This document shows positions 5,078 to 31,854 of a DNA stretch of 64,000 nt, one piece after another. The stretch comes from a virus. Location: IMG/VR virus record IMGVR_UViG_3300027759_000048. One strand, 5' to 3'. The stretch's first letter is position 1, and each line of letters opens with the position of its first letter. The notes beneath the pieces were generated by a model. That model worked only from the letters and a program-made list of their open reading frames with translations. It made no database searches and had not been told where the DNA came from. Position numbers and translations under genes: made by a program.

Positions 5078-8000
5078 ATGTCAATCAAGATCACAACCGG
5101 CGGTGGTGACAAGCTAAATGTCACAACCACACCTAAGAATAGAATTACATTAACAACTGGCGGTGGCGGCTCAATGGCCGGTGCGGCTCTTATCACTGAT
5201 CTTCCTCCAATTTGGTACCATGCCAACGGTGCTGCTAACGTAGCAAACTATGCCTACGCTTCATCTAATTCTAATTGGGTTGTTCAAAATCTAATCTATA
5301 GCACAGTTAATGTCAGCTATACAATGGGCAATGCTGCCTATGTTTGCTTGAATGCTGCTTATGGTACTGTCAATGCTGTCTATGCTTCATCTAATTCCAA
5401 TTGGCAAGTTCAAAATGTAGTTTACTCTACTGTAAATGCTAACTACGTTATGGCTAATGCGAGTTATGTTGCGCTCAACACGGCATATGATACCGTCAAC
5501 GCCGTATATGCTTCAGGAAACTCTAACTGGGTTGTCCAGAATGCTCTTTATACATTAGCTAATACCATCTATGACTCTTCTGTTTCTAACTGGACAGTTC
5601 AGAATGCAATATATTCAACAGCAAATGCTGCCTATGTTATGGGTAATGCAGCGTATGCCACGATTAATGCTAACTACGCTTCATCTAATTCTAATTGGGT
5701 CGTTCAAAACGCATTATATTCTACCACCAATTCTAACTATGTTATGGGCAATGCCGCATATGCTACTATCAATGCGGTGTATGCTTCATCAAACTCAAAC
5801 TGGACAGTCCAGAACGCAGTATTTGGATTAGCAAACACAATATACGCATCATCCAACTCCAATTGGACTGTGCAGAATGCTCTATTCACACTAGCAAACA
5901 CAATCTATGCTTCATCTAATTCAAACTGGACAGTCCAGAACTTAGTATATGCCACAGTCAATGCCAACTATGTCATGGCAAATGCTGGCTATACCACACT
6001 AAATGCTGCTTATGACACAGTTAATGCCGTTTACGCATCATCTAACTCTAATTGGACAGTTCAAAACCTAGTTTATGCTACCGTAAATGCTAATTATGTT
6101 ATGGGTAATGCTTCTTACGAGGCACTAAATGCTGCTTATGATACAGTTAATGCCACTTATGCTTCTAGCAACTCTAACTGGGTCGTTCAAAACGCTCTTT
6201 ACGATCTAACAAATACTGTTTATGCTTCATCTAATTCCAATTGGGTTGTCCAAAATGCTGTTTATGACCTTACCAATACCATTTACGCATCATCTAACTC
6301 TAACTGGGTTGTTCAAAATCTAGTTTACGCTACAGTCAATGCTGCTTATACACTAGCCAATGCTGCTTATTCTAATGCTAACTCACTAGCAATTGCTGCT
6401 AATGCTTGGTCCAATCATGTTGGTCTATCTGCCAATAGCTATGCTGGCTTTATGGCCAATAGCTCTAACATCTATACCGAAGCAACCTATGTAAAACTAA
6501 TCGCACCGTCACAATTGATTGATGGCGACATTGGTATCACTGGTAATCTTACAATCTCAGGTGCTGTAACATACGCCAATACAAGACAGCTACAAGTCGG
6601 CGATAATATCATCACATTGAATGCTGATTTGCCAATGGATGTGATGGCAATTGATAATGCTGGTCTTGAAGTCAATAGAGGCAATCACAACTCTAATGCC
6701 GCTCTATTGTGGATGGAAGTTGATGGTAAGTGGGCAATCACAGGTAACGTTTCACAAACAATCAATACCTTCATATCATCAAACACTGATCTCGGTAAAG
6801 TATTAGATACAGTCAACGCTAATTATGCCTCTGCCAATTCTAACTGGACTGTCCAGAACTTAGTATATGCCACAGTAAACGCAAACTACGTTATGTCTAA
6901 TGCTGCTTATGTAGCATTGAACTCAGCCTATGATACAGTCAACGCCAATTACGCATCATCAAATTCAAACTGGGTTGTTCAAAATCTAGTATATGCTACT
7001 GTTAATGCTTCATACGTTATGGGTAATGCTTCTTATGAGGCACTTAATGCTGCTTACGGAACAGTCAATGCTGTATATGCTTCATCTAATTCCAACTGGA
7101 CAGTTCAAAATCTAGTATATGCTACTGTTAATGCCAACTATGTCATGGCAAACGCAGGATACAATACACTCAATGCTGCCTACGATACTGTCAATGTCAC
7201 TTATGCTTCTGCCAATTCAAACTGGCAGGTACAGAATGCTATCTACGATTTAACTAACACAGTTTACGCATCAAGCAACTCTAATTGGGTTGTCCAGAAT
7301 GCTGTCTATGATTTAGCTAATACAATCTACGCTTCTAGCAATTCCAACTGGACAGTTCAGAACCTAGTTTACGCTACTGTAAATGCCAACTATGTTATGG
7401 CAAATGCCAACTATGATCTAACGAATGCTGCTTACGCTTCTGGTAATTCCAACTGGCAAGTTCAAAATGCTCTATACGATCTTACCAATACTGTATATGC
7501 TTCTTCCAACTCTAACTGGGTTGTCCAGAATGCTATCTACGATTTAACAAATACAGTTTACGCTTCGTCTAATTCCAATTGGACTGTTCAGAATCTCGTA
7601 TATGCGACAGTAAATGCTTCTTACACACTAGCGAATGCTGCTTATGCTAATGCTAATGCTGTGTCTATTGGAGCAAACACATGGGCTAATACAGTCGGTT
7701 TATCAGCCAATAGCTATGCTGGCTTTATGGTCAATAGCTCCAATTCATATGCTGATGCAACATATCTAAAACTAACATCACCGTCACAGACAATCACTGG
7801 TGATCTGTCTATCACTGGTAACGTTTTCTTACTTGGCAATGCAACATCTATTGCTGCTAACAACGTTGTTATCAACGATCCAGTAATCTATCTTGCTGCT
7901 AACAATGATCAAGGCGATGTTTTAGATATTGGTTTTATTGGTAACTATAGCAACGGAACAGCAAATCTTCATACTGGTCTTTATAGAGATCATGCTAATA

Positions 8001-11000
8001 AGCAGTATTACCTCTTTGTTGAACATGCCGGTCCAGATCCATCAACAACAAACGAACTTATTCCATATGCAAATGGAATGATCAATGCGGTTCTCAACAC
8101 TGATCTAATCACAAGCAACATCTATCTTGGCGGCGCTAACGCTATTCATACAATTACTGGCGCCTTTGATAAAGCAAATGCTGCTTATAACAATGCTAAT
8201 GTTGGATTTGCTGCGGCTAATGCTTACTCAAATGCTACTGGTACTGCTGGTAACAACTATGCCTCTATTCTAGCAGCAAACAACGCAGTTGGAGCTAACA
8301 ACTGGGCTAATACAGTCGGTATTGCTGGTAATAACTACACCGATCACGTCGGTCTATCTGTCAATATCTATACATCAATACTAGCTGCCAATAATGCTGT
8401 CGGTGCTAATGCTTGGGCAAATACAGTAGGAACTGCTGGAAACAACTACACAGACCACGTTACTCTTTCTGGTAATACCTACGCTTCTATACTAGCTGCT
8501 AACAATGCTATTGGTGCTAACAACTGGGCTAACACTGTAGGCACAGCAGGTAATAATTATACTAACTATGTCGGCGCTTCAGCTAACAGCTATGCTACTG
8601 CGACATACGCTACACTATCAAACGTAGCACAGGTATACCAGACAACAAACATTTCGTTTGATACTGCTAACGCTGCTTATGCCGCTGCTAACAATGTGGC
8701 TCCACAGGTTACACCATCATACAATACTGCTAACAATGCTTATCTAACAGCAAACGCAGCATTTGGTCATTCCAATCTTACCTATGATGCTGTCAATTCT
8801 GTATTCACTGTAGCCAACGCTGCTTATAACAGTGCTAATGTGGGTCTTGCTTCAGCTAATGCTTGGACAAACACAGTTGGAGCATCTGCTAATTCTTATG
8901 CTCTTACTACAGCAACCAATATTGGAACTGCTGGTAATAACTATACTAACTATGTTGGCGCATCTGCTAACGCATTCGCTGATGCCACATACTATAAGAA
9001 GACTGGTGGATTGATCTCTGGTGATGTAGGTATCACTGGTAATCTAACAATCTCTGGCACAACAACATATGCTAACACTCAGCAACTACAGATTGGGGAT
9101 AATATCCTTACTCTTAATGCTGATTTACCAATGTCAGTTATGCCAATTGACAATGCTGGTCTTGAAGTCAATCGTGGTAATCTAAGTTCCAATGCTGCTT
9201 TACTCTGGATTGAAACCGCTGGACAGTGGAGTATTTCAGGTAATATAGCACAAACAGTTACCACATACATTGCTTCCAATACACTAGTTGAACAATATGC
9301 CTCTGCTGGTAATGCTTATACACAGCAAGTAGGAGCCGCTGGTAATAACTATACTAACTATGTTGGTGCTTCTGTCAATGCTTATGCTACCGCTACCTAT
9401 GCGACACAATCAAATGTTGCTATCATATACAACACATCTAACGTAGCATTTGATACAGCTAACGCCGCTTATGCTTCTGCCAATAACGTAGCACCTCAAG
9501 TAGAGCCAGCTTTTAGAACTGCTAACAATGCTTATCTAACTGCTAATGCTGCCTTTGCTAAAGCAAACGTTGGTGGAGCTAATGTTGCTTCTACACCGCC
9601 AACAAGTCCTACAAATGGACAGCTATGGTGGGATACTGTTACTGGTAGATTGTTTATCTATTATAATGATGGTAATACCTCACAGTGGGTAGAAACAACA
9701 CCTACACCAGAAATTGATACTGGATATTATCATCTAACAAATGTAGCATTCAATACTGTAAATGTTGCTTATGCTTCTATCAATTCCAATTGGACAGTAA
9801 CAAACACTGTTTATGATGTTGCCAATGCCGCATTTGCTTCAGCTAACAATGTTGCTCCTCAGATTCACCCAAGTTATACAACAGCAAATCTAGCATTCTT
9901 TAATAGTAATGCGGCATTCAGACACGCCAACGCAGCATTTGATTCAGCTAACAATGTAGCGCCGCAAGTAACACCTAGCTATAACACAGCTAACAATGCT
10001 TACAATACTGCCAATGCAGCTTTTGATAAAGCAAACAATGCTCTTGCTAATACAACTGGTGTTACATTTGCCGGCAATCTAAAGTTCTCTGGTTCAGCAA
10101 CCGCTAACAATGGATTCTTTTCATTACACGATTACAGAGGTTCATTCTCTGATGGTATCGTAGTTGATTATGTAAACGGTAGAGGTCGTATCAGTGTCGG
10201 TGCTAACGATGCTATGACATTCTACAATGGTGGTGTTGGAACTATACCAATTCTAACATTGTCACAGTATGGCTTCATTGGAATTGGTAATACAAATCCA
10301 ACTTATCCAGTTACCATATCTGGAAACGGCGCACCGATAACCACACTTGCTGGTGCCATCTTCAGTGCAGAGAGTTCAGAAAACGGACCAGTTCAGCTAA
10401 ACATTCGCAATGCTGGCACAAGTCCTGCATCATCTGGTGACCTTGTTGTTACCGCTGATGATGGTAATGATGTCAGCAACTTTATCAATTTTGGTATCAA
10501 CGGTTCTAACTATGCACAACCTGGTTGGACAATCAATGGTGCAAGAGACGGTTATCTCTATACATCAAATAGCAATCTAGCAATTGGTACTGCTAACTCA
10601 ACTGCTCTTAAATCACTATCATTCTTCGTCGGTGGCACACTTGCTGGTAATGAAGTATTACGCATTCAAGATAGTGCAAGCGGTGCCAATATCGGTGTCG
10701 GTAGAACTGATCCAAATTATAAACTTGATATTGTTGGAACAGTTAATGCTTCTAACATTCTCATCAATGGCGTTCCAATTGGCACAGCTTCGGTTAAGGT
10801 TCAGAACACCGCACCAATTCTTCCTGCTGGCGGTAATCTGTGGTGGGATAATGATTCAGGTAAACTTTATATCTACTACATTGATCAAGATTCGGCGCAA
10901 TGGGTTGAGGCTGCTCCAGAAGCACCTGGTATTGATCTTAGTATTCTAATACCAACTAATCAGTTGGCCAACGCAGCTTATAATACTGCTAATGCTGCCT

Positions 11001-11479
11001 TTGATAAAGCTAATAATAGTGGTGCTAATGTAGGACAAACTGCTCCTACTGTTGATCTCACAGTCGGTAAACTTTGGTGGAACTCTGACCTTGGTAAGAT
11101 GTTCGTTTACTATACTGATCCAGCGAATACAAGTTCATGGGTTGAAATATCACCTTCTGTATCATCAATTGAAGGCGCTATCGTTACAGGTTATATCAAT
11201 CCTGTTTATGATGTTGCTAATGCTGCTTTCGATGCTACTAACAATAAGGTACAAATCAGTAGTATTGCGCCTGTCAATCCAACAGCAGGAACATTGTGGT
11301 GGAATAAAGATTATGGTAGATTACTTGTTTACTATACAGATGTGGATTCATCTCAGTGGGTTGATACATCACCATCCTACGACACATCACCTATATATAA
11401 TACAGCGAACGCCGCATACGATAAAGCGAATAGTGGATCATCATTGTCACTTGCTTATGCTGTAGCACTTGGAATGTAA
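5078..11479 (+). CDS. Giant tail-fibre stalk/scaffold (2133 aa) with N-x-x-[YWF] heptad repeats and four LWW..G.L.[IV]YY..QWV 'socket' domains
   Basis: Dozens of consecutive heptads (NAAYDTV, NSNWTVQ...), duplicated beta modules, C-terminal AYAVALG motif. Confidence 0.8.
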   Translation: MSIKITTGGGDKLNVTTTPKNRITLTTGGGGSMAGAALITDLPPIWYHANGAANVANYAYASSNSNWVVQNLIYSTVNVSYTMGNAAYVCLNAAYGTVNAVYASSNSNWQVQNVVYSTVNANYVMANASYVALNTAYDTVNAVYASGNSNWVVQNALYTLANTIYDSSVSNWTVQNAIYSTANAAYVMGNAAYATINANYASSNSNWVVQNALYSTTNSNYVMGNAAYATINAVYASSNSNWTVQNAVFGLANTIYASSNSNWTVQNALFTLANTIYASSNSNWTVQNLVYATVNANYVMANAGYTTLNAAYDTVNAVYASSNSNWTVQNLVYATVNANYVMGNASYEALNAAYDTVNATYASSNSNWVVQNALYDLTNTVYASSNSNWVVQNAVYDLTNTIYASSNSNWVVQNLVYATVNAAYTLANAAYSNANSLAIAANAWSNHVGLSANSYAGFMANSSNIYTEATYVKLIAPSQLIDGDIGITGNLTISGAVTYANTRQLQVGDNIITLNADLPMDVMAIDNAGLEVNRGNHNSNAALLWMEVDGKWAITGNVSQTINTFISSNTDLGKVLDTVNANYASANSNWTVQNLVYATVNANYVMSNAAYVALNSAYDTVNANYASSNSNWVVQNLVYATVNASYVMGNASYEALNAAYGTVNAVYASSNSNWTVQNLVYATVNANYVMANAGYNTLNAAYDTVNVTYASANSNWQVQNAIYDLTNTVYASSNSNWVVQNAVYDLANTIYASSNSNWTVQNLVYATVNANYVMANANYDLTNAAYASGNSNWQVQNALYDLTNTVYASSNSNWVVQNAIYDLTNTVYASSNSNWTVQNLVYATVNASYTLANAAYANANAVSIGANTWANTVGLSANSYAGFMVNSSNSYADATYLKLTSPSQTITGDLSITGNVFLLGNATSIAANNVVINDPVIYLAANNDQGDVLDIGFIGNYSNGTANLHTGLYRDHANKQYYLFVEHAGPDPSTTNELIPYANGMINAVLNTDLITSNIYLGGANAIHTITGAFDKANAAYNNANVGFAAANAYSNATGTAGNNYASILAANNAVGANNWANTVGIAGNNYTDHVGLSVNIYTSILAANNAVGANAWANTVGTAGNNYTDHVTLSGNTYASILAANNAIGANNWANTVGTAGNNYTNYVGASANSYATATYATLSNVAQVYQTTNISFDTANAAYAAANNVAPQVTPSYNTANNAYLTANAAFGHSNLTYDAVNSVFTVANAAYNSANVGLASANAWTNTVGASANSYALTTATNIGTAGNNYTNYVGASANAFADATYYKKTGGLISGDVGITGNLTISGTTTYANTQQLQIGDNILTLNADLPMSVMPIDNAGLEVNRGNLSSNAALLWIETAGQWSISGNIAQTVTTYIASNTLVEQYASAGNAYTQQVGAAGNNYTNYVGASVNAYATATYATQSNVAIIYNTSNVAFDTANAAYASANNVAPQVEPAFRTANNAYLTANAAFAKANVGGANVASTPPTSPTNGQLWWDTVTGRLFIYYNDGNTSQWVETTPTPEIDTGYYHLTNVAFNTVNVAYASINSNWTVTNTVYDVANAAFASANNVAPQIHPSYTTANLAFFNSNAAFRHANAAFDSANNVAPQVTPSYNTANNAYNTANAAFDKANNALANTTGVTFAGNLKFSGSATANNGFFSLHDYRGSFSDGIVVDYVNGRGRISVGANDAMTFYNGGVGTIPILTLSQYGFIGIGNTNPTYPVTISGNGAPITTLAGAIFSAESSENGPVQLNIRNAGTSPASSGDLVVTADDGNDVSNFINFGINGSNYAQPGWTINGARDGYLYTSNSNLAIGTANSTALKSLSFFVGGTLAGNEVLRIQDSASGANIGVGRTDPNYKLDIVGTVNASNILINGVPIGTASVKVQNTAPILPAGGNLWWDNDSGKLYIYYIDQDSAQWVEAAPEAPGIDLSILIPTNQLANAAYNTANAAFDKANNSGANVGQTAPTVDLTVGKLWWNSDLGKMFVYYTDPANTSSWVEISPSVSSIEGAIVTGYINPVYDVANAAFDATNNKVQISSIAPVNPTAGTLWWNKDYGRLLVYYTDVDSSQWVDTSPSYDTSPIYNTANAAYDKANSGSSLSLAYAVALGM
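5240..7650 (+). repeat. Coding 21-nt (heptad) repeat array, in units of 3-6 heptads
   Basis: Recurrent gcttcatctaattc/ctaactgg...caaaat encoding YASSNSNW.VQN, interrupted once by a beta module at about 6480-6800. Confidence 0.8.
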
Positions 11480-11488: not shown

Positions 11489-14431
11489 ATGGCAAAGAAG
11501 TTAATTAAATCATATGTTTTCACACCGGGAGCGGCGGGAGTGGGATCCGTTGTTATTCCAGGCAAGGTGTCTATTGAAGATTTGTTGCTAGTTACTAACG
11601 TAACAAGAAACGTCATTATCTATAACTTCGGTGCTCCTGAATTTATTGGAACAACAGTTGTCTATACTGCCGCTGATACTGCTTTGTTCACAAATCTTCT
11701 TCAGAAAGAAGCTGGTTATACAACTATTACTCTTGCTTACAATACATCAACCCATAGTGCTACAGACAAACTACAAGTATTCGTAGAAGATTCAAAAGAC
11801 GGTGTTAAGATTAGACCATGGGCATTTGGTACTGACGCCATTGAACGTATTCGTGTAGCAAATCCACAGTCAATGATTGACGCCGACTTTGAATACGGTC
11901 TACAGCCTACGAAGTGGGCAGGTTACGGCACAATTCGTGGTTATCCTTCAACATACGAATTGCCAGGTATCGATCTAACAGTAACCACAGTTACCACAGA
12001 CTTCAATGCTACAAGTTCAACAAACAGTGTAATTACAGCAACATTCGATTCTGCTCATGGTATGGTCGCAGGTCAAGTTATTTGTATGACAAGTTTGAAT
12101 CCTGCTGTTGTTGGTTTCAGTAGAGCGGCAGGTAACTTTATCATCAACTCAGTGCCATCTTCTACATCCGTCACATACTTTGCTAAAGGTATTGTAGGAA
12201 CATTCAACGGTCAAAATTTGTTTATCACCTCTACACTAGCAAAAAGAGGTGCTCTCTACTCGGTATCAGAAATCGTTGTTAAAGATGCCACATCATCTGG
12301 TGCGATTCCTTCTGTTATGACGATCAATTTTAATGCTCCTCATGGACTTCTACCAGGTACACAGATATATGCTAACGTTGGATCTGGTAACTATGCCAAC
12401 CTAGCAACTGGTCCGTTTGTTATTACAAGCGTACCGTCACAAAACTCTTTCATCTATACTGCCAGAACAGGAGCAGCAGTTGCTTCTCCAGCTTTGATGA
12501 ATGTTTATGCGTTCAACTCATCATCTATTGTCCATCGACCACAAGACGGTGGTGTTGTTCTTGAAACAGGAACACCGACATATGGTGCTGTCGCAGTTCG
12601 TCAGACTAAAAAGTATTTCCGTTATCAATCTGGTAAAGGTTATTTCTGGTCAACTGGTACATTGTTTAAACCAAACTATGACGTTCAATCTATTACCTCC
12701 AGTGGTCTAGGCATTGGTTCTACTGTAACAGTAACCACAGATAATATCGATCATGGTTTACAACCTGGTGCGATTATTAGATTAAACAGTGTATTGACAT
12801 CTGGTTATAACGGAACATATACCGTCACTAGTATCGTAAGTGACTATTCTTTCACCTTTACTGCTACACAAAATCTTGGTGCCACTAGTGCGGTGCTTGA
12901 TATTGATTGTAGAGTTTATATTGACAGATGGACTGGCGCTTGTGTTAGAGCCGGTATGTTTGACGATCAGAACGGTATTTTCTGGGAGTTCGATGGTAAT
13001 AGACTTTATGTGGTTAGAAGATCATCCACGGCACAGGTTACTGGTACAGTTTCAGCAACATTAAACAGCAGTCTTATTACAGGAACAAGCACAAGATTTA
13101 CTCAGCAACTTAAAGCTGGTGATAAGGTCATGATTAGAGGTATGACACACTTTATTTCATATGTTGCGGATGATATAACCGCATACATTACACCAGATTA
13201 TCGTGGTGTTACTGCTACAGGTATTAAAGCAAGTATGATTAGAGAGTTGAGAATTCCTCAGAATGAATTTAACGTTGATACTATCGACGGTAACGGTCCT
13301 AGTGGATACAACATCGATCTAAACAAAATGCAGATGATGGCTATTCAGTTCTCATGGTACGGCGCTGGCTTCATTGATTACATGGTTCGTGGTTCAGATG
13401 GTAACTTCTTAACAGCACATCGTATCAAAAACAATAACGTCAATGACGAATCCTATATGCGTTCTGGTAACTTGCCTGTTCGTTATTCTATCGAGAATGA
13501 CTGTCCAGTTAGTTTCTTGACTACTGCTATGAATGCTACACAGAATACTATTCCAATCAAAGAAACTAAGTTCTTTCCTAATACGGGCATCGTTTATATT
13601 GACAATGAAATCATTAGTTATAATGGTAAGAGCACTACATCTGGTACAGGTAATCTGACGAATGCTGTTAGAAACTTTACTATGTCACAGTATCAATCCG
13701 GATCATCATATAATCTAACAGCGGGAGCTAACGTTGCTCACTCAGCCGCTAACGGCGTTATTATGATTCAGACAACTTGTAGTCCGACACTCAATCACTG
13801 GGGTTCTGCTCTTATTCTTGACGGTGGGTTTGACTCGGAACGTGGTTACATCTTCAACTATCAAAGAATTAACATGCCGCTTACAACTACAGCGCAGACG
13901 GCGTTCGTTATTCGTCTTGCTCCATCAGTTGAAAACTCACAGATTGGTCCATTGGGTTCTAAGACATTGCTCAATCGTTCTCAGTTGCTACTAGAAGAAG
14001 TCGGTGTTGCTGTCTCCGGCGGTTCATCATCACCTTTAGTTGGTAACATTATTATTGAAGGTATTCTCAATCCTAAGAACTTTAGTAATGCTACATGGAC
14101 AGCATTGAACACAGAGTCCGTGGGTGGACAGCCAAGTTTCGCTCAGGTTTCTCAGACTGTTATTTGGTCAACTATCGGTGCTGGTCCATCTTCTGGTGTT
14201 CAGTATGCTATTCCTGGTGAGCAGGTGTTCGCTTTCGCTGGTCAGGCAACTACATCAGGCGCTGTTAGTGATCGTCTTGACATCGGTAAACTAAAAGAGT
14301 TGACGGGTGCTCCACTTGGTGGTGACTTTAAGTATCCTGACGGCTCTGATATTCTAGCAATCAATATTAGAACGACATCAGGTACAGCGAACGCCGCACT
14401 TGTTTTGCGATGGTCAGAAGCACAGGCATAA
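11489..14431 (+). CDS. Large virion fibre/structural protein (980 aa, beta-rich, putative lectin-like)
   Basis: MAKKLI.SY.FTPG N-terminus, QSMIDADFEYGLQPTKW and VRQTKKYFRYQSGKG motifs as in T4-like structural proteins. Confidence 0.7.
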   Translation: MAKKLIKSYVFTPGAAGVGSVVIPGKVSIEDLLLVTNVTRNVIIYNFGAPEFIGTTVVYTAADTALFTNLLQKEAGYTTITLAYNTSTHSATDKLQVFVEDSKDGVKIRPWAFGTDAIERIRVANPQSMIDADFEYGLQPTKWAGYGTIRGYPSTYELPGIDLTVTTVTTDFNATSSTNSVITATFDSAHGMVAGQVICMTSLNPAVVGFSRAAGNFIINSVPSSTSVTYFAKGIVGTFNGQNLFITSTLAKRGALYSVSEIVVKDATSSGAIPSVMTINFNAPHGLLPGTQIYANVGSGNYANLATGPFVITSVPSQNSFIYTARTGAAVASPALMNVYAFNSSSIVHRPQDGGVVLETGTPTYGAVAVRQTKKYFRYQSGKGYFWSTGTLFKPNYDVQSITSSGLGIGSTVTVTTDNIDHGLQPGAIIRLNSVLTSGYNGTYTVTSIVSDYSFTFTATQNLGATSAVLDIDCRVYIDRWTGACVRAGMFDDQNGIFWEFDGNRLYVVRRSSTAQVTGTVSATLNSSLITGTSTRFTQQLKAGDKVMIRGMTHFISYVADDITAYITPDYRGVTATGIKASMIRELRIPQNEFNVDTIDGNGPSGYNIDLNKMQMMAIQFSWYGAGFIDYMVRGSDGNFLTAHRIKNNNVNDESYMRSGNLPVRYSIENDCPVSFLTTAMNATQNTIPIKETKFFPNTGIVYIDNEIISYNGKSTTSGTGNLTNAVRNFTMSQYQSGSSYNLTAGANVAHSAANGVIMIQTTCSPTLNHWGSALILDGGFDSERGYIFNYQRINMPLTTTAQTAFVIRLAPSVENSQIGPLGSKTLLNRSQLLLEEVGVAVSGGSSSPLVGNIIIEGILNPKNFSNATWTALNTESVGGQPSFAQVSQTVIWSTIGAGPSSGVQYAIPGEQVFAFAGQATTSGAVSDRLDIGKLKELTGAPLGGDFKYPDGSDILAINIRTTSGTANAALVLRWSEAQA

Positions 14432-18356: not shown

Positions 18357-18358
18357 CA

Positions 18359-20823: not shown

Positions 20824-20824
20824 A

Positions 20825-21388: not shown

Positions 21389-21400
21389 GGAGAATAAAAA

Positions 21401-21673: not shown

Positions 21674-21696
21674 ATAGGAACAAAAGAGGAAAAACT

Positions 21697-21996
21697 ATGA
21701 GAGATTTATCAAAAGCAATTATGTCACTATATCCAGGAGCACAGTGGGTTCTCAATGGTGAGGAATACTCTGGGCTAGACTGGCTACCAGGTAATGAAAA
21801 ACCAAAGCCAACTCAGAAAGAGTTAGAAGATGAATGTGACCGTCTTCATCAGATTTGGTTGAACAATCAGTATCAGAGAGATAGAGCAAAGGCATATCCG
21901 TCATTCGCCGATCAGTTTGATACACTATATCACGGTGGTTATGATGCTTGGAAGGCATCTGTTGACGAAGTAAAGAACAAGTTTCCAAAACCATAA
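21697..21996 (+). CDS. Small fibre partner/chaperone
   Basis: AI.SL.PGA.W...LDW...YQRDRAKAYPS..DQ.D.LY...VK.KFPKP. Confidence 0.65.
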   Translation: MRDLSKAIMSLYPGAQWVLNGEEYSGLDWLPGNEKPKPTQKELEDECDRLHQIWLNNQYQRDRAKAYPSFADQFDTLYHGGYDAWKASVDEVKNKFPKP

Positions 21997-22004
21997 GGTA
22001 AGTA

Positions 22005-22811: not shown

Positions 22812-22812
22812 T

Positions 22813-23601: not shown

Positions 23602-24591
23602 ATGGCTATTATAGACTTTCCATCAAACCCAACTAATGGGCAGACATATAACCAGAATGGTGTTAGCTATTATTACAATGCTGCTATTGGCGCATGGTTG
23701 ACTCAAATCACATCTACAGAGTTATCATCAACCGCTGCTAACAATCAGGTATTGTTCGTTGATGGTGGCTTATCAAACGGAACATCTGGACTAGTCTATA
23801 CTAAAGCAGCGAATACATTGTTTGCTAATGGTGTCGTCGCTAATACAATGGTTACTGACCGCCTTCATGTGAATGTTCTTTCTGGCAGCGGACTGAACCC
23901 AACGAATAACGCTATCGTTGCTGCCTTTGATAGAGCTAATAACTCACTACAAAACACCAGCTTTACTCTAAATGGTGACTTAACTGTAAGCGGCACGGTT
24001 AACACAAACATCAATATCAATGCTACTAGACTAAGATCAAACATCATTCAAAGTTCTACAGGCACAGACTTTATGATTGATGGTTATCCTAGAATGCCAG
24101 GACAGATCATTCAGGTTGTCAATACATATTATAGAACTCCAACGTCTCTATCAATTCCAGCTAGTTACAACACATATACAGATGTTCCTGGTATATCAGC
24201 AACTATCACTCCTAGAAGTTCTAGTAGTAAAATCTATATGACGGTTAGATGGTTTGGTGAATGGAATGGCGCAGGATTGACTTGGGAAGCTATGTTCAAC
24301 ATCAAAAGAAACGGCACCGTTGTCGGACTACCTGATCCTAATGGAACAAATACCCTGGGTATTCATATGGCTGCTTTATCTTATTATGCAGGAGGCGACG
24401 CCGACAGCACGCCAGAAACTTGTTTTTTTGATTATTATGATTCTCCAGCAACGACATCAGCATTGACATATCAATTAGCAATTGCTTCATTTACTGCCGG
24501 TACAATGTTTATCAATAGATGCGTTAATGCTTCGGCGGGTAACAGTTATGAAAGAGGCACAAGTTCAATCACACTATTTGAGATATCATAA
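23602..24591 (+). CDS. Branch fibre with plug and C-terminal G.I.QVV...S.ITL.EI domain
   Basis: MAIIDFPSNPTNGQ; N-terminus paralogous to the 14441 gene; C-terminal domain shared with 24940 and 26239. Confidence 0.7.
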   Translation: MAIIDFPSNPTNGQTYNQNGVSYYYNAAIGAWLTQITSTELSSTAANNQVLFVDGGLSNGTSGLVYTKAANTLFANGVVANTMVTDRLHVNVLSGSGLNPTNNAIVAAFDRANNSLQNTSFTLNGDLTVSGTVNTNININATRLRSNIIQSSTGTDFMIDGYPRMPGQIIQVVNTYYRTPTSLSIPASYNTYTDVPGISATITPRSSSSKIYMTVRWFGEWNGAGLTWEAMFNIKRNGTVVGLPDPNGTNTLGIHMAALSYYAGGDADSTPETCFFDYYDSPATTSALTYQLAIASFTAGTMFINRCVNASAGNSYERGTSSITLFEIS

Positions 24592-24610: not shown

Positions 24611-24940
24611 ATGGCACTTAATTTTCCAAACTCACCTACTAATGGACAAGTCTATGTTGACGGCACATCAGGAAGTCGTTATGTCTATGATGCGGCTAAT
24701 GGTAGATGGAACTCAAATACATACGTTCAATCTATTCTAGGTGGTTTCTATGCTGGTAACAATGGTGAAGTTGGGCAAGCGCCGTCACTAGGTGATATCT
24801 TTAGATTACACACTAACACACTAACATCAAACGTTACGATCTATTCAGGCAACAATGCTATATGTGCCGGTCCCCTAAATATCACAGGAAATAATACTAC
24901 ACTAACTATTCAGTCGGGATCTAGGGTGGTAATCGTATAA
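24611..24940 (+). CDS. Minimal adaptor: plug fused to NA..AGP hub (109 aa)
   Basis: MALNFPNSPTNGQ...; ends NAICAGPLNITGNNTTLTIQSGSRVVIV. Confidence 0.7.
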   Translation: MALNFPNSPTNGQVYVDGTSGSRYVYDAANGRWNSNTYVQSILGGFYAGNNGEVGQAPSLGDIFRLHTNTLTSNVTIYSGNNAICAGPLNITGNNTTLTIQSGSRVVIV

Positions 24941-26205
24941 TGTCAACTTTATCCGTATCAAATATCACCACACCATCTAATACGACACCGCTCGTTCTTT
25001 CATCAGCGAATAGTCAGGCTGCTTTTGTTAGAGTAGAGGCAGCTAACAATGATATTGTCTTTGGTGGAACAACTAAGTTTCTAGGAACATTCTCATCAGC
25101 AGGTCTTCAATCAAATAGTATAAATGTTGCTTTTGATGTTGCTAATGCTTCATTCAATATTGCTAACACAGTATCGGCCGCCGTAGTATCAGCTTCTTTC
25201 AATACAGCTAATGCGGCATATGGTTTAGCTAATACATCTTCAGCTTCTCTCGGCTCTAACTGGGCTGTCACTAATACTGTCTATGGTGTAGCCAACGCAG
25301 CTTTCGCCTCTGCTAATAACGTAGCGCCACAAGTCACACCAGCTTTCAATACAGCTAATGCAGCATACAGCTACGCTAATGCGGCATTCTCATCTCTCAG
25401 TGCCTCTATCAATTCCAACTGGACAGTCACCAATACTGTCTATGGCGTTGCTAATACTGCTTTACCAAATACAAGTAGTGTTACGCTTGCAGGTGCTTTG
25501 ACATTATCGACAACAGGTGTACCTCAGATAATCAATTCAAGCGATAGTAACACTTACAAAGTAGCATTGCGTAATAATGGCACAACCGTAGGATTTTTTG
25601 GTGCGTCTTCTAGCAATCCGTTTATTGTTGCTAATAGCAGCGTGGCGACTTTGTTTAGTGTCGATAGTGTGGGCAACTTTGCTACAACAGGAACACTGAC
25701 TACATCATCTCGTGGTATTGCTAAAGCATCTATGCCTTCTGGTTCTATTCTACAAGTTCAACAGACATGGTGGGATGGAGTCGCAACTCTTGCTGTAAGT
25801 TCTTTTACCAATCATCCAAATCTATCAGTATCAATCACGCCAACATCCGCAACCAGTAAAGTATTAGTTATGATTTCAATGCAGGCTGTCGTCTATAACG
25901 TAACAATGCAGGCGAGATTTACTAGAAATGACACACCTATTGGAATTGCTGCCGCAGCAAGTTCAAGAGTTCTTTCTACCTTTGGTGGTCTCCAGACAAT
26001 TGGCGATGGTAACCACCAGTTTACCCCATGGAATTATCAGTATCTCGATTCACCAGCATCAACATCCGCTTTGACATATAGAATACAATTAAAAATGCAG
26101 GGTGGTTCAACAGCATATCTTAACCGTTCAGTCAATGATGCCGATAACACCGACTGGGCGCAAAGAACAACATCATCTATAACAGTTATGGAAATAGCAC
26201 AGTAA
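24940..26205 (+). CDS. Fibre/adhesin (MSTL.V N-terminus, heptad stalk, GSILQV...SITVMEIAQ domain)
   Basis: TAATG coupling; AFASANNVAPQVTPAF module. Confidence 0.7.
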   Translation: MSTLSVSNITTPSNTTPLVLSSANSQAAFVRVEAANNDIVFGGTTKFLGTFSSAGLQSNSINVAFDVANASFNIANTVSAAVVSASFNTANAAYGLANTSSASLGSNWAVTNTVYGVANAAFASANNVAPQVTPAFNTANAAYSYANAAFSSLSASINSNWTVTNTVYGVANTALPNTSSVTLAGALTLSTTGVPQIINSSDSNTYKVALRNNGTTVGFFGASSSNPFIVANSSVATLFSVDSVGNFATTGTLTTSSRGIAKASMPSGSILQVQQTWWDGVATLAVSSFTNHPNLSVSITPTSATSKVLVMISMQAVVYNVTMQARFTRNDTPIGIAAAASSRVLSTFGGLQTIGDGNHQFTPWNYQYLDSPASTSALTYRIQLKMQGGSTAYLNRSVNDADNTDWAQRTTSSITVMEIAQ

Positions 26206-26238
26206 TATGAAGAGAATAAATATCCTAAAGGGTAATCA

Positions 26239-27900
26239 ATGTCAATTCTAAGAGTAGCAAACGTTCAGTTTAACGCCTCAGGCACCAGACGTATCGATTA
26301 CGATTCTGTGGCTGATGATGGTATCATTAAAGTATCAGCGGCTGCCATTAGACTACCTGTAGGTGATACTGCTTCTCGTCCTAATTCACAAGCTGGTATG
26401 ATACGCTACAATAGTGATACAGGTTACGTTGAGTTTGGTGGTAATACTAACTGGATTCCTGTTGCTTCTAATGCTGCTTTTAATGTTGCCAACGCTGCCT
26501 TTGCCTCAGCTAACAATGTTGCTCCGCAAGTAACACCTGCTTTTCTAACTGCTAACAATGCTTATGCTTCAATCAATTCTAATTGGACAGTAACGAACGC
26601 CATATACGGTATAGCAAATACATCATTGACAACTAGTAATTATTTGACATATTCCTTTCCAAGAAGAGGCCTTAGTGTAAATCAAGGTAGTGATTCAAAC
26701 ACTTATTACTATCTAATTGGTACCATTGGTAATAATAATGGTAATTTTCATGTTAGAGGAAATATAGGCGGACACGATGGTCCTGCTGGAGGAACACAAG
26801 GTGCTGCCTCTGTTGTAATTTCAATATTTTCAAGAGTTGGTAATATTCCTGTTCAAGGTCTTATCAATGGATCCATAGGTAACCAAGACCTTCAAGTTTA
26901 TAAAGATTCAGGTAACAATGTCTATATATACGTTAAAAGTACCGCATATTCTCTAATTGATCTTCAATACAGCGATGCTGCTGGAGCGACTTCTTATTAC
27001 TCTCCAACTGGATCTCAGACTACTCCAGTCTCTCTTGGATACACATTAACGTGGGCGGCCGCCAATAATCAAGGCAATTCAACCACATCTACTGCAATCC
27101 AAGGAACTCTTAGTGCATCAAATCTTGGTGTTGGTAATACTACACCAGGTGCCGCAAAACTTCACATAACTGCCGCCAACACAATTGGTGGTATCGGTTA
27201 TGCAGATTTCTTGAGAGTAACAAACAACTCATATCCCGCTGTTACAAATCCTGTTAAAACTTTTAGACTGAACCAATCTGGTAGTTTTGAGATTATCAAT
27301 AACGCATATACTCAAGTTATTGCCGCTCTTGATGATACCGGTAACTTAGTTACTTCAGGAAATATAACATCATCTTCTCGTGGCATTGCAAAAGCATCAA
27401 TGCCTGCTGGATCGGTATTACAAGCAGCATCTACTACAAAAACAGACACTTTTAGTACCGCAGTCAATATTTCCGCCTCAGGCGGTAGTTATACATCTAC
27501 AGGCACAACTGTTACAGGATTATCGGTTACAATAACGCCTACTAGTTCTACAAGTAAAATTTTAGTCATGGTTAATTTGAATGGTATGGGAACACCCGGT
27601 GTTGCTCAATTGTATTGTTTATTATACAGAGATTCTACATTAATCGGAAATCCATCTCCGGTTAGTGCTAGACCCGGTGTAATGGCAAGAACTCATTCTG
27701 AAAATGGTGTCATTGTAGTAGGAACTTGTTCTTTTTCTCATCTGGATTCTCCGGCGACCACATCAGCAGTAACATATTCAGTAAAAGTTGGGGGTGAAAA
27801 CTCCGGAACGGTTTATGTGAATAGATCATATTCTGATGGCGACTCTACTAATGGAGCTAGAATGTCCAGCACAATCACCGTTATGGAGATCGCTCAGTAA
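26239..27900 (+). CDS. Fibre/adhesin (553 aa)
   Basis: LP.G.TA.RP...GMIRYN module, heptad stalk, same C-terminal domain as 24940. Confidence 0.7.
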   Translation: MSILRVANVQFNASGTRRIDYDSVADDGIIKVSAAAIRLPVGDTASRPNSQAGMIRYNSDTGYVEFGGNTNWIPVASNAAFNVANAAFASANNVAPQVTPAFLTANNAYASINSNWTVTNAIYGIANTSLTTSNYLTYSFPRRGLSVNQGSDSNTYYYLIGTIGNNNGNFHVRGNIGGHDGPAGGTQGAASVVISIFSRVGNIPVQGLINGSIGNQDLQVYKDSGNNVYIYVKSTAYSLIDLQYSDAAGATSYYSPTGSQTTPVSLGYTLTWAAANNQGNSTTSTAIQGTLSASNLGVGNTTPGAAKLHITAANTIGGIGYADFLRVTNNSYPAVTNPVKTFRLNQSGSFEIINNAYTQVIAALDDTGNLVTSGNITSSSRGIAKASMPAGSVLQAASTTKTDTFSTAVNISASGGSYTSTGTTVTGLSVTITPTSSTSKILVMVNLNGMGTPGVAQLYCLLYRDSTLIGNPSPVSARPGVMARTHSENGVIVVGTCSFSHLDSPATTSAVTYSVKVGGENSGTVYVNRSYSDGDSTNGARMSSTITVMEIAQ

Positions 27901-29582
27901 TGTCAACCCTTAGCGTTCAAACCATCAGAGACATTCGTAGTATGGATTTCAGCAACACAGAGTTCGCTGGTGCGTATAATGCTTCTAATGCTGCGTTCAA
28001 TTCTGCCAATCTTTCTTATAACGCACAAAATGTTGTGTTTGCTGTTGCTAATGCTTCTTATAACTCCGTCAATTCTAATTGGACAGTTACTAATACTGTA
28101 TATGGTGTTGCTAACGCTGCCTTTGCTTCAGCTAACAATGTAGCACCACAAGTAACACCTGCGTTTAATACAGCCAACTTAGCCTATGCTAAAGCTAACT
28201 CAGCATTACCAAACACAACTAATGCTGTGTTTCAAGGCAATCTAACAATCACCGGCGCATTGACTATCGGTCAGAATACAGTAACAATCACAGAAACCTC
28301 GCTAAATGTAGCTAATGGATTGTTTGTTACCAAAGATTACATGACAATACCAACCGGTAATACTGCTCAGAGACCGTCAGGCGCAATGCCAGGTATGATG
28401 AGATTTAACACAGAAACGGGTTATCTCGAACAATATTCACAAGGTTCGTGGTCGAGTATTTCAACACCACCAGTGATTTCAAATGTAACACCATCATCAT
28501 TTAGCGGTGAAACTGGTACCACATTTACTATCAATGGATCAAATTTTGACGGATCACCTGTAGTAAAATTTATCACTAATGGTGGCACAGAATACTTCGC
28601 ATCAGTAACAACTAGAGTTAGTGCTTCTCAATTAACAGCAACTACTCCACAAGATTTTACTATTGCTAATGAACCTCTCAAAGTAAAAGTTATTAATGCT
28701 AGTGGTTTGTCTTTTGTATTGGATTCAGCTATTGATTGTGGTGGTGTTCCTGCCTGGGCTAATTCATCTGGTTCATTAGGATCCACAATAGGTGGTATAG
28801 GTTCTGGTGTTTTGGCAACAGCAAATGCGACTGATCCAGATATTGGTGCTACTTTATCATATTCATTAACCTCAGGATCTCTACCAGCAGGTTGTTATCT
28901 AGGTTCATCAAACGGTAACATCTTTGGTACAACAACATTTTCAGAAAGCAATACTACATATAGTTTTACATTAACAGCAACAGATAATGCCGGCAATCAA
29001 ACACCACGCAGTTTCTCTTTCTTGGTGGAAAGAGGTGTAGAATCTGGTGGGGGATTGGGATATCTATCGCAATTTGCGGACAAAACCGTTGCTAATAATA
29101 TTACAAACACTGGCATGACACTCTATTATGCTAATGCTCAAGCGGCAAGTCCGAATAGTCCAACAAATTGGTTAAATTATAGTTATGGCAATTTCGCAAT
29201 TCATACAGGTCATGATGGTGTTAAACCAACATATCTGTGTTTCAACTTAACAGGCGGAACGCCTCGTGCTCTAAATAGATTTCGCTGGGTTAAACATGCT
29301 AATGCTTGTGGTAATATTGATTTTTATGGATCAAATCAAAACATTACTAGCGGTAACTATCAAACTATTGGTAATTGGACATATCTAGGTCGTGGTCATA
29401 TGGGTGGTTCAGGTTCAGAGGGTGATGGTACCGTAAAAACAGCAGCCTTCAATTCAAGTCGATATGGTTATCGTTGGTATATGGTTCTTGTTAGAGATAT
29501 TGGTGGTTCACTTGCTTATCCGTCTGAGGGTAACATGGGTGGTTATGCTATGTATGGAGCAACATTCGATTATGTTGCTTAA
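27900..29582 (+). CDS. Fibre/adhesin with IPT/TIG and Ig-like domains and putative carbohydrate-binding C-terminus
   Basis: P.ISNVTP...FTINGSNF (TIG); ATD.D...YSL..GSLPAG..L...G.I.GT (He_PIG-like). Confidence 0.7.
   Translation: MSTLSVQTIRDIRSMDFSNTEFAGAYNASNAAFNSANLSYNAQNVVFAVANASYNSVNSNWTVTNTVYGVANAAFASANNVAPQVTPAFNTANLAYAKANSALPNTTNAVFQGNLTITGALTIGQNTVTITETSLNVANGLFVTKDYMTIPTGNTAQRPSGAMPGMMRFNTETGYLEQYSQGSWSSISTPPVISNVTPSSFSGETGTTFTINGSNFDGSPVVKFITNGGTEYFASVTTRVSASQLTATTPQDFTIANEPLKVKVINASGLSFVLDSAIDCGGVPAWANSSGSLGSTIGGIGSGVLATANATDPDIGATLSYSLTSGSLPAGCYLGSSNGNIFGTTTFSESNTTYSFTLTATDNAGNQTPRSFSFLVERGVESGGGLGYLSQFADKTVANNITNTGMTLYYANAQAASPNSPTNWLNYSYGNFAIHTGHDGVKPTYLCFNLTGGTPRALNRFRWVKHANACGNIDFYGSNQNITSGNYQTIGNWTYLGRGHMGGSGSEGDGTVKTAAFNSSRYGYRWYMVLVRDIGGSLAYPSEGNMGGYAMYGATFDYVA
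27901..27925 (+). repeat. 25-bp direct repeat, copy 1
   Basis: TGTCAACCCTTAGCGTTCAAACCAT, identical at 29604-29628. Confidence 0.9.
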
Positions 29583-29603
29583 CACAGTAAAAGGAACAAA
29601 CGT

Positions 29604-29628: not shown

Positions 29629-29638
29629 AGAGAGATAA

Positions 29639-31216
29639 ATGGCATTAGATTTTCCACCATCACCTTCCGACGGACAGATATTTGTAGATCCTACATCAGG
29701 AAGTAAATATATCTATGTAGCTGCTACAACAAAATGGCAGTCAATCCAACACGTCGGTGTGATAGTAGCATATGGCTTTGATAAAGCTAATGCCGCATTC
29801 ATAACTGCTAATGCCGCTTATGGCGCTGCTAACAATGTTGGACCGCAGCTTGCTCCAGCATTCAATACCGCTAATGCTGCTTTTGCTGTTGCCAACTCTG
29901 CTTTACCAAACGTAAGCAATACTGTGTTCGAGGGTAATCTAAGAATTACAGGCACATTATCAATCGGTACAAACACTGTAGTAATTACTGATAACTCTAT
30001 ATCAGCACAATCTATCATTGTTGCAGGTTCACCTATTCCTTCTGGTGTAACATCCAATCTTGCTTTTGATACCGCTAATGCCGCATTTGCTTCAGCTAAC
30101 AATGTTGCTCCTCAAATTGCTCCTGCTTTCAATACTGCTAATGCTGCCTTTGCTTCAGCTAACAATGTTGCACCACAAGTAACACCTGCTTTTCTAACTG
30201 CCAACTTAGCGTTTGCGGCTGCTAACAGTGCTAACATATACTCTAATAGTACCTATGTTAAACTAACATCATCAAGTCAGACAATTACCGGCGACCTTGC
30301 TATCACTGGCAATTTATCACTATTAGGTAATGTAACAACATTACGATCAAACAATCTGATTGTTAATGACTCGCTAATCTATCTTGCTGCCAACAACGAT
30401 CTTTCTGATATTATAGACATCGGCTTTGTTGGTAACTATAGCAACGGAACAGCCAATCTACATACAGGTCTTTTCAGAGATCATGCTACCAAACAATATT
30501 TTCTATTCAACAATCTAGGTGGACCTGAACCAGAAACAATAAACGATATAATTCCATATGCGAACGGTATGATCAATGCTGTTCTTAATGCTGATGTCAT
30601 CACAAGTAACCTTACACTTGGCGGTGCTAATGCTATAAATTGGATTACGGCAGCTTATACATCTTCCAATGCTGATTATGCTACAAGCAATGCGGCTTTT
30701 AATACTACTAATGCTGCTTTTGGTAGAGCTAACACCGCTTTACAGAATACCAGTGGTACACTTGCTGGCAGTTTAACTATTACAGGTAGTTTAGGTATTG
30801 GAACAGGCGCTTCCGCTAATACGGGTGAAATTAGAGCAACAAATAACATTACCGCTTACTATTCCGATGAACGTTTAAAGAATATCATATCAACTATTCA
30901 ATCACCGTTAGAGAAAGTAAATCAACTATCAGGCGTCATATACACTAACAATGATGTGGCTGCCTCATTTGGTTATACAGATATGTCGGAGCAAGTCGGA
31001 CTACTTGCCGGACAAGTGCAAAAAGTTTTACCTCAGATTGTTAAGTCTGCACCATTTGATACTGAGTTTATAGATGGTGTAGAGGTGTCAAAGTCAGGTC
31101 AGAATTATAAGACTGTTCAATATGAAAAAGTAATACCGCTGTTAGTTGAAGCAATCAAAGAGCAGCAGAAACAGATTGAGGAACTAAAGACACTAATCTC
31201 AAGAGAAGTTAAATGA
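29639..31216 (+). CDS. Branch fibre with plug and C-terminal peptidase S74 intramolecular chaperone
   Basis: MALDFPPSPSDGQ; YYSDERLKN...YEKVIPLLVEAIKEQQKQIEEL. Confidence 0.8.
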   Translation: MALDFPPSPSDGQIFVDPTSGSKYIYVAATTKWQSIQHVGVIVAYGFDKANAAFITANAAYGAANNVGPQLAPAFNTANAAFAVANSALPNVSNTVFEGNLRITGTLSIGTNTVVITDNSISAQSIIVAGSPIPSGVTSNLAFDTANAAFASANNVAPQIAPAFNTANAAFASANNVAPQVTPAFLTANLAFAAANSANIYSNSTYVKLTSSSQTITGDLAITGNLSLLGNVTTLRSNNLIVNDSLIYLAANNDLSDIIDIGFVGNYSNGTANLHTGLFRDHATKQYFLFNNLGGPEPETINDIIPYANGMINAVLNADVITSNLTLGGANAINWITAAYTSSNADYATSNAAFNTTNAAFGRANTALQNTSGTLAGSLTITGSLGIGTGASANTGEIRATNNITAYYSDERLKNIISTIQSPLEKVNQLSGVIYTNNDVAASFGYTDMSEQVGLLAGQVQKVLPQIVKSAPFDTEFIDGVEVSKSGQNYKTVQYEKVIPLLVEAIKEQQKQIEELKTLISREVK

Positions 31217-31854
31217 CCATAAAGGCATCAGGTTCATCTTTGTCTATGAGCGAGATTAACGCTGAATTTGCTTTAGGTAACAATCTCAATTCTCATAGAG
31301 GCATCGGTTGGTACTTGGATAATGTTCAAAAAGGAACTTTTTCTTCTGGAGCTATATCTTTCAGCGACTTTTATTCTAAGAGAAAAACCACTCCAGTAAC
31401 CGCAGGAAGTGCAACGGTTTCTGCAAGTGGTAACTATACTGTTCCTCTATATGAAACACTAACGGTTACTGTATATGGTGGAAGAGGTGGACAATCCGGC
31501 ACACAAGATAGTGGTTGCGCTGGTTTACAGGGTTCTGGTAATGGCGGTACAGGAGGTGCAAGTAGTTTTGGAGCATTTGCTTCAGCGGCTGGAGGAGCTG
31601 GTGGTAGCGGAAATTTAGTTTCTGGATCTCAACCGTCTTCAGTAACAGTTTTCACCAATCCACTAAACGGTGGAACTGGACCAGCGACAGGTGCTGTTGT
31701 TGCTGTAACTTGTGGCGGTGGTGGCAGTGGGGGTAGCGGAGCCCCACAATATCGAACAGTACCTTCTGGTTGTAGCACCGTTTGTTCCCTTGTTAGTTAT
31801 GCAGCAGCGGGTGCTGCTGGAGCTACCGGATCCGTAGTTATAAGTTGGACTTAG
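31213..31854 (+). CDS. Gly-rich cap adhesin for the S74-type fibre
   Basis: SG..LSMSEINAEF...SGAISFSDFY N-terminus; ATGA overlap. Confidence 0.65.
   Translation: MTIKASGSSLSMSEINAEFALGNNLNSHRGIGWYLDNVQKGTFSSGAISFSDFYSKRKTTPVTAGSATVSASGNYTVPLYETLTVTVYGGRGGQSGTQDSGCAGLQGSGNGGTGGASSFGAFASAAGGAGGSGNLVSGSQPSSVTVFTNPLNGGTGPATGAVVAVTCGGGGSGGSGAPQYRTVPSGCSTVCSLVSYAAAGAAGATGSVVISWT

Follow-up and report, generated by a model that had tools for sequence, protein, structure and literature searches.

The 64,000 nucleotides of the virus record IMGVR_UViG_3300027759_000048 that were analysed here (the window) contain an array of tail-fibre genes, in which a module of about 38 residues occurs 12 times: six times as a "plug" at the N-terminus of a protein and six times as an internal "socket". 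Judged by profile comparison, plug and socket are two homologous forms of a single module with three predicted beta-strands. We propose that the array probably encodes a branched, multi-tipped fibre, in which plug proteins sit on socket nodes through module-on-module pairing of beta-strands. What moved us from a merely shared repeat to docking was the combination of a predicted plug-socket complex, two gene fusions in relatives, the counts of plug and socket types, and the order of the genes. Genes and proteins are named by the position of their first nucleotide, except for the giant, a fibre protein of 2133 amino acids (aa), and all features of the window given below lie on the + strand.

In the proposed architecture, each plug would pair with one socket along the strand edges: the final strand of the plug (G-A-W-L-T) would run beside that of the socket (Q-W-V-D), and the plug's invariant Phe6 would pack on the socket Tyr/Val. 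Three plugs would decorate one trimeric socket node and anchor a second fibre there. Because proteins 18720 and 22005 each bear a plug and a socket, such docking could be recursive. The giant, with four sockets, would be the root, carrying the chain 18720 to 22005 to 23602 and the side fibres 14441, 24611 and 29639; at the ends of several fibres, an adaptor domain would receive additional tips via short N-terminal strands. The docking, its geometry and its specificity are what we infer, by computation alone, from modules whose anatomy, subtype homology, distribution, fusions and counts are observed.

Plug and socket modules in the window

The plug motif MA(L/I/A)xFPxxPxxGQ...W opened six open reading frames (ORFs; 14441, 18720, 22005, 23602, 24611 and 29639), and the socket motif G.LWW....G.L.[IV]YY.D..SQW[VI] was found in six internal modules, four in the giant, one in 18720 and one in 22005. 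An earlier reading of the sequence (the first-pass annotation) had listed the same six plug genes and six sockets; all six plug starts were confirmed, and the sockets were recovered by both motif and profile. When a profile of the 12 modules was searched against all six frames of the window, which is 64 kb of a genome of about 175 kb, exactly 12 matches were obtained (E 3e-21 to 5.5e-14), and the next-best match had an E-value of 0.34. As the profile was derived from the same 12 modules, this gap speaks only for the absence of further copies in the window. Independent support came from the profile search, in which both subtypes occurred in thousands of other proteins.

The giant (5078-11479) has long N.A(F/Y)..AN repeats and, near the C-terminus, four sockets: S1 at aa 1503-1543 (9584-9706; hidden Markov model E 2.7e-22), S2 at aa 1908-1948 (10799-10921; E 1.8e-19), S3 at aa 1987-2027 (11033-11158; E 8e-18) and S4 at aa 2060-2100 (11255-11377). 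Two proteins carry both subtypes. The first, 18720 (310 aa; 18720-19652), has a plug at aa 1-36 and S5 at aa 44-84 (18849-18971), and the second, 22005 (268 aa; 22005-22811), has a plug at aa 1-37 and S6 at aa 45-85 (22137-22259), followed by a helix. The remaining plug proteins are 14441 (249 aa; 14441-15190), with a plug at aa 1-37 and a C-terminal "adaptor" domain at about aa 198-249; 23602 (329 aa; 23602-24591), which is plug-only and was recognised by motif and profile; 24611 (109 aa; 24611-24940), in which the plug is joined to an adaptor C-domain; and 29639 (525 aa; 29639-31216), a plug-only fibre with helical repeats and a C-terminal Peptidase_S74 domain (PF13884, E 1e-7).

The socket consensus, TAP..P..G.LWW....G.LYIYY.D..S.QWV..SP, lies inside fibre proteins, between helical repeat segments, and the plug consensus, MALNFP.SP..GQ.Y.D...G..Y.Y.....W, at the extreme N-terminus of other fibre proteins, with Phe6 invariant. 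The 12 module sequences aligned collinearly, with Pro, Gly, Gly, Tyr and Trp as common columns, and comparison of the plug profile with the socket profile gave a probability of 91% (E 1e-6). The first-pass view of plug and socket as two different, complementary parts was corrected on this basis. Three look-alike pairs had also been described for each subtype. Plugs 14441/23602 (58% identity), plugs 24611/29639 (57%, one clade) and sockets S4/S6 (63%) are clean pairs. The likeness of plugs 18720/22005 is loose, 22005 being closer to 24611 (59%) than to 18720 (54%), and the other two socket pairs did not stand: S1 and S2 are not mutual nearest relatives, and S3 and S5 share 37% identity, with S3 nearest to S4, and S5 nearest to S1 and S4.

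A third motif, P.G.TA.RP....G.(I/M)R(Y/F)N...G..E......W, was seen in the tip proteins 26239 (26239-27900; aa ~40) and 27900 (27900-29582; aa ~151), and also at the C-terminus of the giant in the relative L002 (IMGVR_UViG_3300034198_000029). It has a spacing logic like that of plug and socket, yet was missed by the 12-module profile, and may represent a remote branch of the module family.

Module family and predicted fold

At E <= 1e-3 the profile matched 8,936 cluster representatives, of which 1,856 reached E <= 1e-10; a single protein held as many as 14 copies. The best 150 proteins contained 528 modules at a median spacing of 52 residues, and 34 of these modules begin at residue 1. No Pfam model for the module was found in the eight main window proteins and ten multi-copy relatives. 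Sub-threshold or partial Pfam matches (Phage_Gene47, KTSC, Tudor_5, Cyclophil_like2 and DUF2793) had no passing stretch and were set down to noise that the aromatic hairpin motif produces; DUF2793 may be remotely related to the module. Sequence searches of the PDB with two profiles gave nothing better than E 0.045, and Foldseek gave no match in the PDB at E <= 0.001. The best match in the wide VIA-align search was to residues 584-625 of CBA120 TSP3 (Z 4.1), and the collagen XV trimerisation domain reached Z 3.5, both too weak for a fold assignment.

An AlphaFold2 (AF2) model of 22005 aa 1-105, built with 22 relatives, had a mean predicted local distance difference test score (pLDDT) of 81 and replaced a single-sequence AF2 model with a pLDDT of 37. 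Plug strands were predicted at residues 14-16, 23-27 and 32-35 and socket strands at 58-61, 66-72 and 77-81, the latter preceded by a short strand at 43-46. The N.A(F/Y)..AN repeats directly after S6 were predicted as a helix. The module resembles WW domains and other small three-stranded beta-meanders in length, in the three strands, in a pair of aromatic positions spaced by about 20 residues and in a G-x-x-Y-Y-x-(N/D) core. The WW prototype and the PRP40 WW gave weak profile matches that were not significant (E 0.06-0.4), and Foldseek and VIA-align gave no WW hits; the likeness was treated as resemblance only.

Predicted plug-socket complex

A complex was predicted from three copies of 22005 aa 1-105 and three of 23602 aa 1-70, using self-made alignments. 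The interface score (ipSAE) was 0.72, 0.70 and 0.74, and the best of three controls scored 0.00. The 0.72 mark was attained by 58 of 80 solved complexes and by 2 of 110 mismatched pairs, a calibration that holds only roughly here because the alignments were self-made and the 3+3 job is unlike the calibration set. The pLDDT of the partners did not fall below 70, and the runs had 63% or more of their contacts in common.

The confident interface lies between residues 47-49 and 61-86 of the socket (S6) and residues 1-10 and 19-34 of the plug (23602), with one plug per socket copy. In the model, socket strand 78-81 runs against plug strand 30-34, and residues 71, 78 and 80 are the contacts of Phe6 of the plug. 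The interface residues are the most conserved positions in both subtypes. Since there is no solved homologue, the score does not merely echo a complex that was already available. The first-pass annotation had placed 23602 on S6, and the modelled interface falls exactly between S6 and the 23602 plug. The model supports binding between plug and socket for this pair, and stops short of showing it.

Fusions, socket and plug types, and counts in relatives

Two fusions were found. The giant of UViG29, a 51% relative, has only S1' and S3' and no S4. Its C-terminus is a 14441-type adaptor domain (60% identity over 52 aa to the 14441 C-terminus), three tip genes follow directly, and there is no separate 14441-type gene at that place. 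The lineage-E giant has only S1' and no S2, there is no 24611-type plug, and the last 65 aa of the giant correspond to the whole non-plug part of 24611 (aa 44-109; 71% identity, E 1e-29). In each fusion, the socket lost was the one that the first-pass annotation had assigned to that plug. The "socket plus plug-adaptor" of the window is therefore swapped for a covalent adaptor elsewhere.

Homologues of the giant were present in relatives, and orthologues of 18720 in all lineages examined. S1-type sockets were found in L115, UViG29 and lineage E, and S3-type sockets in every lineage examined. The S2 type was present in L115 and lineage C and absent from UViG29 and lineages D and E, and the S4 type was confined to the window and L115, in which the giant is followed by a 14441-type gene of its own. 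S1 co-occurred with the 29639-type plug, S2 with the 24611-type plug, and three lineage-D-specific sockets with three D-specific plugs. Among the docking pairs proposed in the first pass, the joint presence and absence of types in relatives and the fusions in two lineages point to S4-14441, S2-24611 and S1-29639 as probable partners. The pairings of 18720 with S3 and of 22005 with S5 follow only by elimination.

Plug and socket numbers, which had been expected to agree in relatives, were equal in the window (six and six), in UViG29 (four sockets of S1, S3, S5 and S6 types; four plugs of 18720, 22005, 23602 and 29639 types), in lineage C (L126; four sockets of S2, S3, S5 and S6 types; four plugs of 18720, 22005, 23602 and 24611 types) and in lineage D (six sockets, three of them of a D-specific clade; six plugs, three of them D-specific). 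The 4/4 of lineage C was counted up to gp13, which lies after the last plug gene. The sixth plug of lineage D was predicted from the socket count and then found, with a TTG start, before gp13. In the window-like L115, the contig of which is truncated, sockets S1'-S4', S5' and S6' and plugs of the 14441, 18720 and 22005 types were seen. The expected equality failed in lineage E, which has four sockets and five plugs, a second 23602-type plug being without a matching socket, and in many distant phages, given below.

The 29639 orthologues in UViG29 and lineage E start with TTG. TTG starts ("LALNFP...") were seen in several 29639/24611-type plug genes (L002 14758, L198 14391, L131 7412 and L205 20942), so gene callers that accept only ATG miss the plug.

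The N-terminal 100 aa of most 22005 representatives were 70-96% identical to the window protein (lowest 33-55%), in proteins of 143-450 aa; further 22005-type representatives that were looked up lie on contigs of 1-5 kb. The N-terminal 70 aa of 23602 were 49-97% identical to the window protein, mostly at least 62%, in proteins of 193-485 aa. Conserved plug and plug-plus-socket N-termini combined with variable C-termini constitute, as far as sequence comparison tells, the signature of an anchor. The 18720 orthologue of L002 (9232-10332) has a TAG stop inside S5, and the remainder continues as an ORF of its own; a pseudogene, an error in sequencing and a programmed event are all conceivable.

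Gene order and possible tip connectors

The first-pass annotation had read the gene order as a depth-first walk through the fibre, and given the assumed type pairings, this order fitted in 5/5 lineages compared. Within the clade, the order of the plug genes is the inverse of that in which their presumed sockets stand on the giant. A sample of 19 clusters from diverse contigs, none of them cut by a contig end, was also compared. The first module-bearing gene was socket-only in 18 of these clusters and the last was plug-only in 13. The order socket-only, plug plus socket, plug-only (S, PS, P) was seen five times among the 19, and also in G011 (complete), G016 (89% complete) and G010 (44%), and the order in G005 (complete; 3/3) was S, PS, P, PS.

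Tip genes after an adaptor of the 14441 or 24611 type open with MP(V/I)xISGS, MPIK(L/I)NSxGGGS or MST(I/L)K/SxxN (window 15201-18356 and 24940-29582; L002 3518-9216 and 12138-14728; L196 4341-6884). These N-terminal motifs are up to 84% identical between relatives, with swapped C-termini, and in UViG29 and lineage D the adaptor domains are likewise followed by these three classes, again with different C-termini. The short motifs may be a second connector system, joining tips to the 14441/24611-type adaptor. The start of the giant itself, MSIKITTGGG, resembles the MPIK(L/I)NSxGGGS class.

Weighing of the alternatives

Less certain than docking itself is a strict code of one plug per socket with cognate subtypes, which is plausible within the clade and has already been broken once. 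Several observations also weigh against docking as such. Parity is broken in lineage E (5 plugs, 4 sockets), where the predicted extra socket of S4/S6 type is absent. Plug and socket numbers are unequal in S-N03 (~10/15), S-H34 (~10/13), S-B68 (3/9), S-CRM01 (5/9), G004 (5/7) and G012 (2/4), and sockets occur without a detectable plug in ACG-2014e/j and G008. Sockets are commonly tandem repeats with a period of about 50 residues, and evidently have a structural life of their own. Because plug and socket are homologous and sockets stand in tandem arrays, the trans interface could copy the cis packing of neighbouring repeats. Close cousins of a true partner also pass the complex tool, which therefore says nothing of specificity between plug types, and the exit of two trimeric shafts from one node lacks an explanation. 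Moreover, the lineages of the clade are kin and their matching counts are not independent events, and the module scan covers 64 kb of the ~175-kb genome. Counting a tandem socket array as one site was tried and rejected: it rescued S-CRM01 (5/5), but left S-B68 with 3 plugs and 4 arrays and S-N03 with 10 plugs and 6 arrays.

The module could, though we think it unlikely, be a mere structural repeat, that is, a trimerisation or node domain whose N-terminal copy is simply the first repeat. The plug proteins would then reach the virion by other means, and equal counts would be coincidence plus shared ancestry. Consistent with this are the homology of plug and socket, the huge family with up to 14 copies per protein at a median spacing of 52 aa, proteins such as P0001, with six sockets linked by poly-Gly, the many genomes in which sockets far outnumber plugs or plugs are absent, and an inconclusive, weak fold likeness to small trimerisation units (collagen XV, Z 3.5). 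A structural repeat leaves unexplained, however, the restriction of the plug subtype to residue 1 with an invariant Phe6, the matched changes of socket and plug types at loci separated by 13-20 kb, the two fusions in which precisely "socket plus plug" is replaced, the recurrent gene order, and a complex score that is separated from its controls.

A shared N-terminal anchor among fibres is the commonest arrangement in phages (PMC6872550), and the plugs might anchor to another common site (the baseplate, the p132-like protein 4733 or, in end-to-end joints like those of T4 gp34-37, the C-terminal ends of other fibres), with the sockets uninvolved; we regard this as improbable, slightly more so than the structural repeat. 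Protein 4733 (113 aa; 4733-5074) adjoins the giant on its upstream side. It is T5 collar (p132)-like and matches phrog_3304 (positions 6-113, E 4.3e-16) and phrog_1084. The fusions, too, tie plug proteins to the C-terminal region of the giant and not strictly to a socket. The model nevertheless seats the plug on the socket and on neither the helix nor the other plug, and a socket type is lost together with its plug type. Positions 112-170 of phrog_3304, furthermore, match the socket module, and the p132-like domain is thus fused to a socket in other phages, which fits the socket as a presented docking site; about this stretch, the matches were to the giant (E 1.5e-30, three stretches), 18720 (E 3.8e-7) and 22005 (E 2.4e-7).

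That the modules are recombination linkers for swapping distal fibre parts, without a docking role, is very improbable, since the signs of exchange (strong mosaicism, with 84% identical N-terminal motifs on unrelated C-termini in UViG29, and a last plug protein in lineage C that bears the C-terminal domain of window gene 2134) are compatible with docking and not an alternative to it, and a linker predicts neither count nor type matching and does not account for protein-level conservation across phages that are <50% identical elsewhere and across 8,936 clusters.

Docking of plugs on sockets might extend well beyond this clade. We put forward as a tentative possibility, on balance doubtful, that the module is a general recursive connector "grammar" of thousands of tailed phages, in which cognate subtypes specify docking, fusion and docking are interchangeable, and genes stand in assembly order. 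If this were true, branching topology would be readable from the genome and new tips could be grafted by a plug swap.

Relation to known systems

The T4 long tail fibre (gp34-gp35-gp36-gp37) consists of several proteins that are joined non-covalently. It is like the proposed fibre in having separately encoded trimeric segments and genes in assembly order, and unlike it in that the joints are end-to-end and unbranched and no sequence similarity is present; we know of no self-similar connector in it. A second group of known systems is that of the anchor-branch complexes of receptor-binding proteins (RBPs), which TSP1-4 of phage CBA120 form.

Anchor-branch complexes are described for the E. coli phages G7C (gp66/gp63.1) and K1-5/SP6 and for Klebsiella phages of the KP32, Menlow and PhiK64-1 groups, and the PhiK64-1 group has five T4gp10-like domains and four conserved peptides (PMC6872550). 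They share with the proposed window system several RBPs per particle, a docking domain in one protein with a short conserved N-terminal element in the next, variable distal parts and similar counts. The conserved N-terminus with a variable distal part was found here as well, the N-terminal 70-105 aa being mostly 62-97% identical in proteins of 143-485 aa. Their platform, in contrast, is a T4 gp10-like (XD) domain, to which the docking peptide or domain is unrelated, whereas both partners in the window would be variants of one ~38-residue beta-meander module. The docking would also be recursive, with plug-plus-socket chains three deep, and the sockets lie between the coiled-coil-like helical repeats of a 2133-aa fibre. 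A HMMER scan of the giant, the 980-aa protein encoded after it and the six plug proteins against Pfam gave no gp10-like family at E <= 0.1, and the PHROG matches of these proteins were generic "tail fiber". No description of the module or of branched cyanophage fibres was found in the literature searched. The principle is that of the known anchor-branch RBP complexes (PMC6872550); the connector, its self-similarity and the recursion are new.

The T5 collar protein p132 and the L-shaped fibre pb1 (PDB 8hqz) offer a further comparison. Protein 4733 matches the p132-like part of phrog_3304 (annotated "L-shaped tail fiber protein assembly"), and the socket matches the C-terminal part of that PHROG. 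On the other side, the match of 4733 to 8hqz_Q ("L-shaped tail fiber assembly") is weak (E 0.01), and T5 fibres are unbranched. In S-CAM7 gp131, a p132-like domain has a socket module at its C-terminus; from the phrog_3304 fusion it follows that a collar-type domain presents a socket in some cyanophages.

Cyanomyoviruses and many environmental phages carry at least a dozen "tail fibre" genes whose arrangement on the particle is obscure, which is a main obstacle to predicting host range from sequence. If the module is a connector, fibre wiring would be predictable from gene content, and the interchange of fusion and docking would explain how fibre repertoires grow and shrink. The module, with neither a Pfam entry nor a solved structure and present in about 9,000 protein clusters, would then be an obvious candidate for structural work and would offer a natural site at which RBPs could be exchanged in laboratory phage strains.

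Phage type and remaining genes of the array

The region is a tail-fibre gene array between baseplate-side genes and gp13. All long ORFs between 1 and 36 kb are on the + strand, and homologues of gp13, gp14 and gp15 from position 34211 onward make up a T4-type virion module. Directly after the giant, a 980-aa virion structural protein without plug or socket is encoded (11489-14431; phrog_5838, E 1e-246), with its best isolate matches in structural proteins of the Synechococcus phages S-CAM1 and S-CAM3 (45% aa identity). The phage records that match the socket-bearing C-terminus of the giant were Synechococcus/Prochlorococcus phages in 88 of 93 cases. Near-identical DNA was not found in isolate phages, the DNA shared with isolates not extending beyond ~45 bp. 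A contig of 174,808 bp carries a protein identical to 23602. On the evidence of gp13/14/15, phrog_5838 and the S-CAM1/S-CAM3 matches, the window is assigned to an uncultivated T4-like phage close to cyanomyoviruses, in a Kyanoviridae-like context.

The plug gene 14441 is followed by three tip genes and a 118-aa ORF (15201-18709), with the short N-terminal motifs MPVSISGSG, MPIKLNSSGGGS and MSTIKSINLQHP. Three paralogous tip genes with phrog_15750 in common, together with two small ORFs (19652-21996), lie between 18720 and 22005. The phrog_15750 tips had been called C1q-like in the first-pass annotation, and Pfam C1q (faint, weak or unmarked) was seen on some tip and plug-bearing genes in the clusters of relatives. 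A Gly-rich tip protein (254 aa; 22813-23577; phrog_2295) comes next. As the listed ORF (22735-23577) has 77 nt in common with the end of 22005, this gene more likely starts at 22813, where an ATG directly follows the 22005 stop.

Downstream of 24611 are three tip genes (24940-29582) with MST/MSI-L-(S/R)-V N-termini, two of which, 26239 and 27900, carry the third motif. Look-alikes of 24611 in the ESM Atlas were unnamed viral clusters, one of them with Mtd_N in 11% of its members, which is only a lead for the adaptor C-domain. The terminal Peptidase_S74 domain of 29639 is an intramolecular chaperone as in endosialidase-type fibres, and in relatives it is joined to other N-termini (L002 7376 and L196 10001). 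The last gene of the array (213 aa; 31213-31854) had no family match.

Gene 2134 (2134-2976), which has no plug, lies upstream of the giant. Its C-terminal 135 aa share 57% identity with the distal domain of the plug protein that is encoded last in lineage C (L126 14536-15318), so the same tip is mounted via different N-terminal connectors in different phages. Lineage C also has an HNH-endonuclease-like ORF (HHIIPKH...H; L126 16159-16824) between gp13 and gp14, which is not at this position in the window, and its gp14 is seemingly shortened at the N-terminus.

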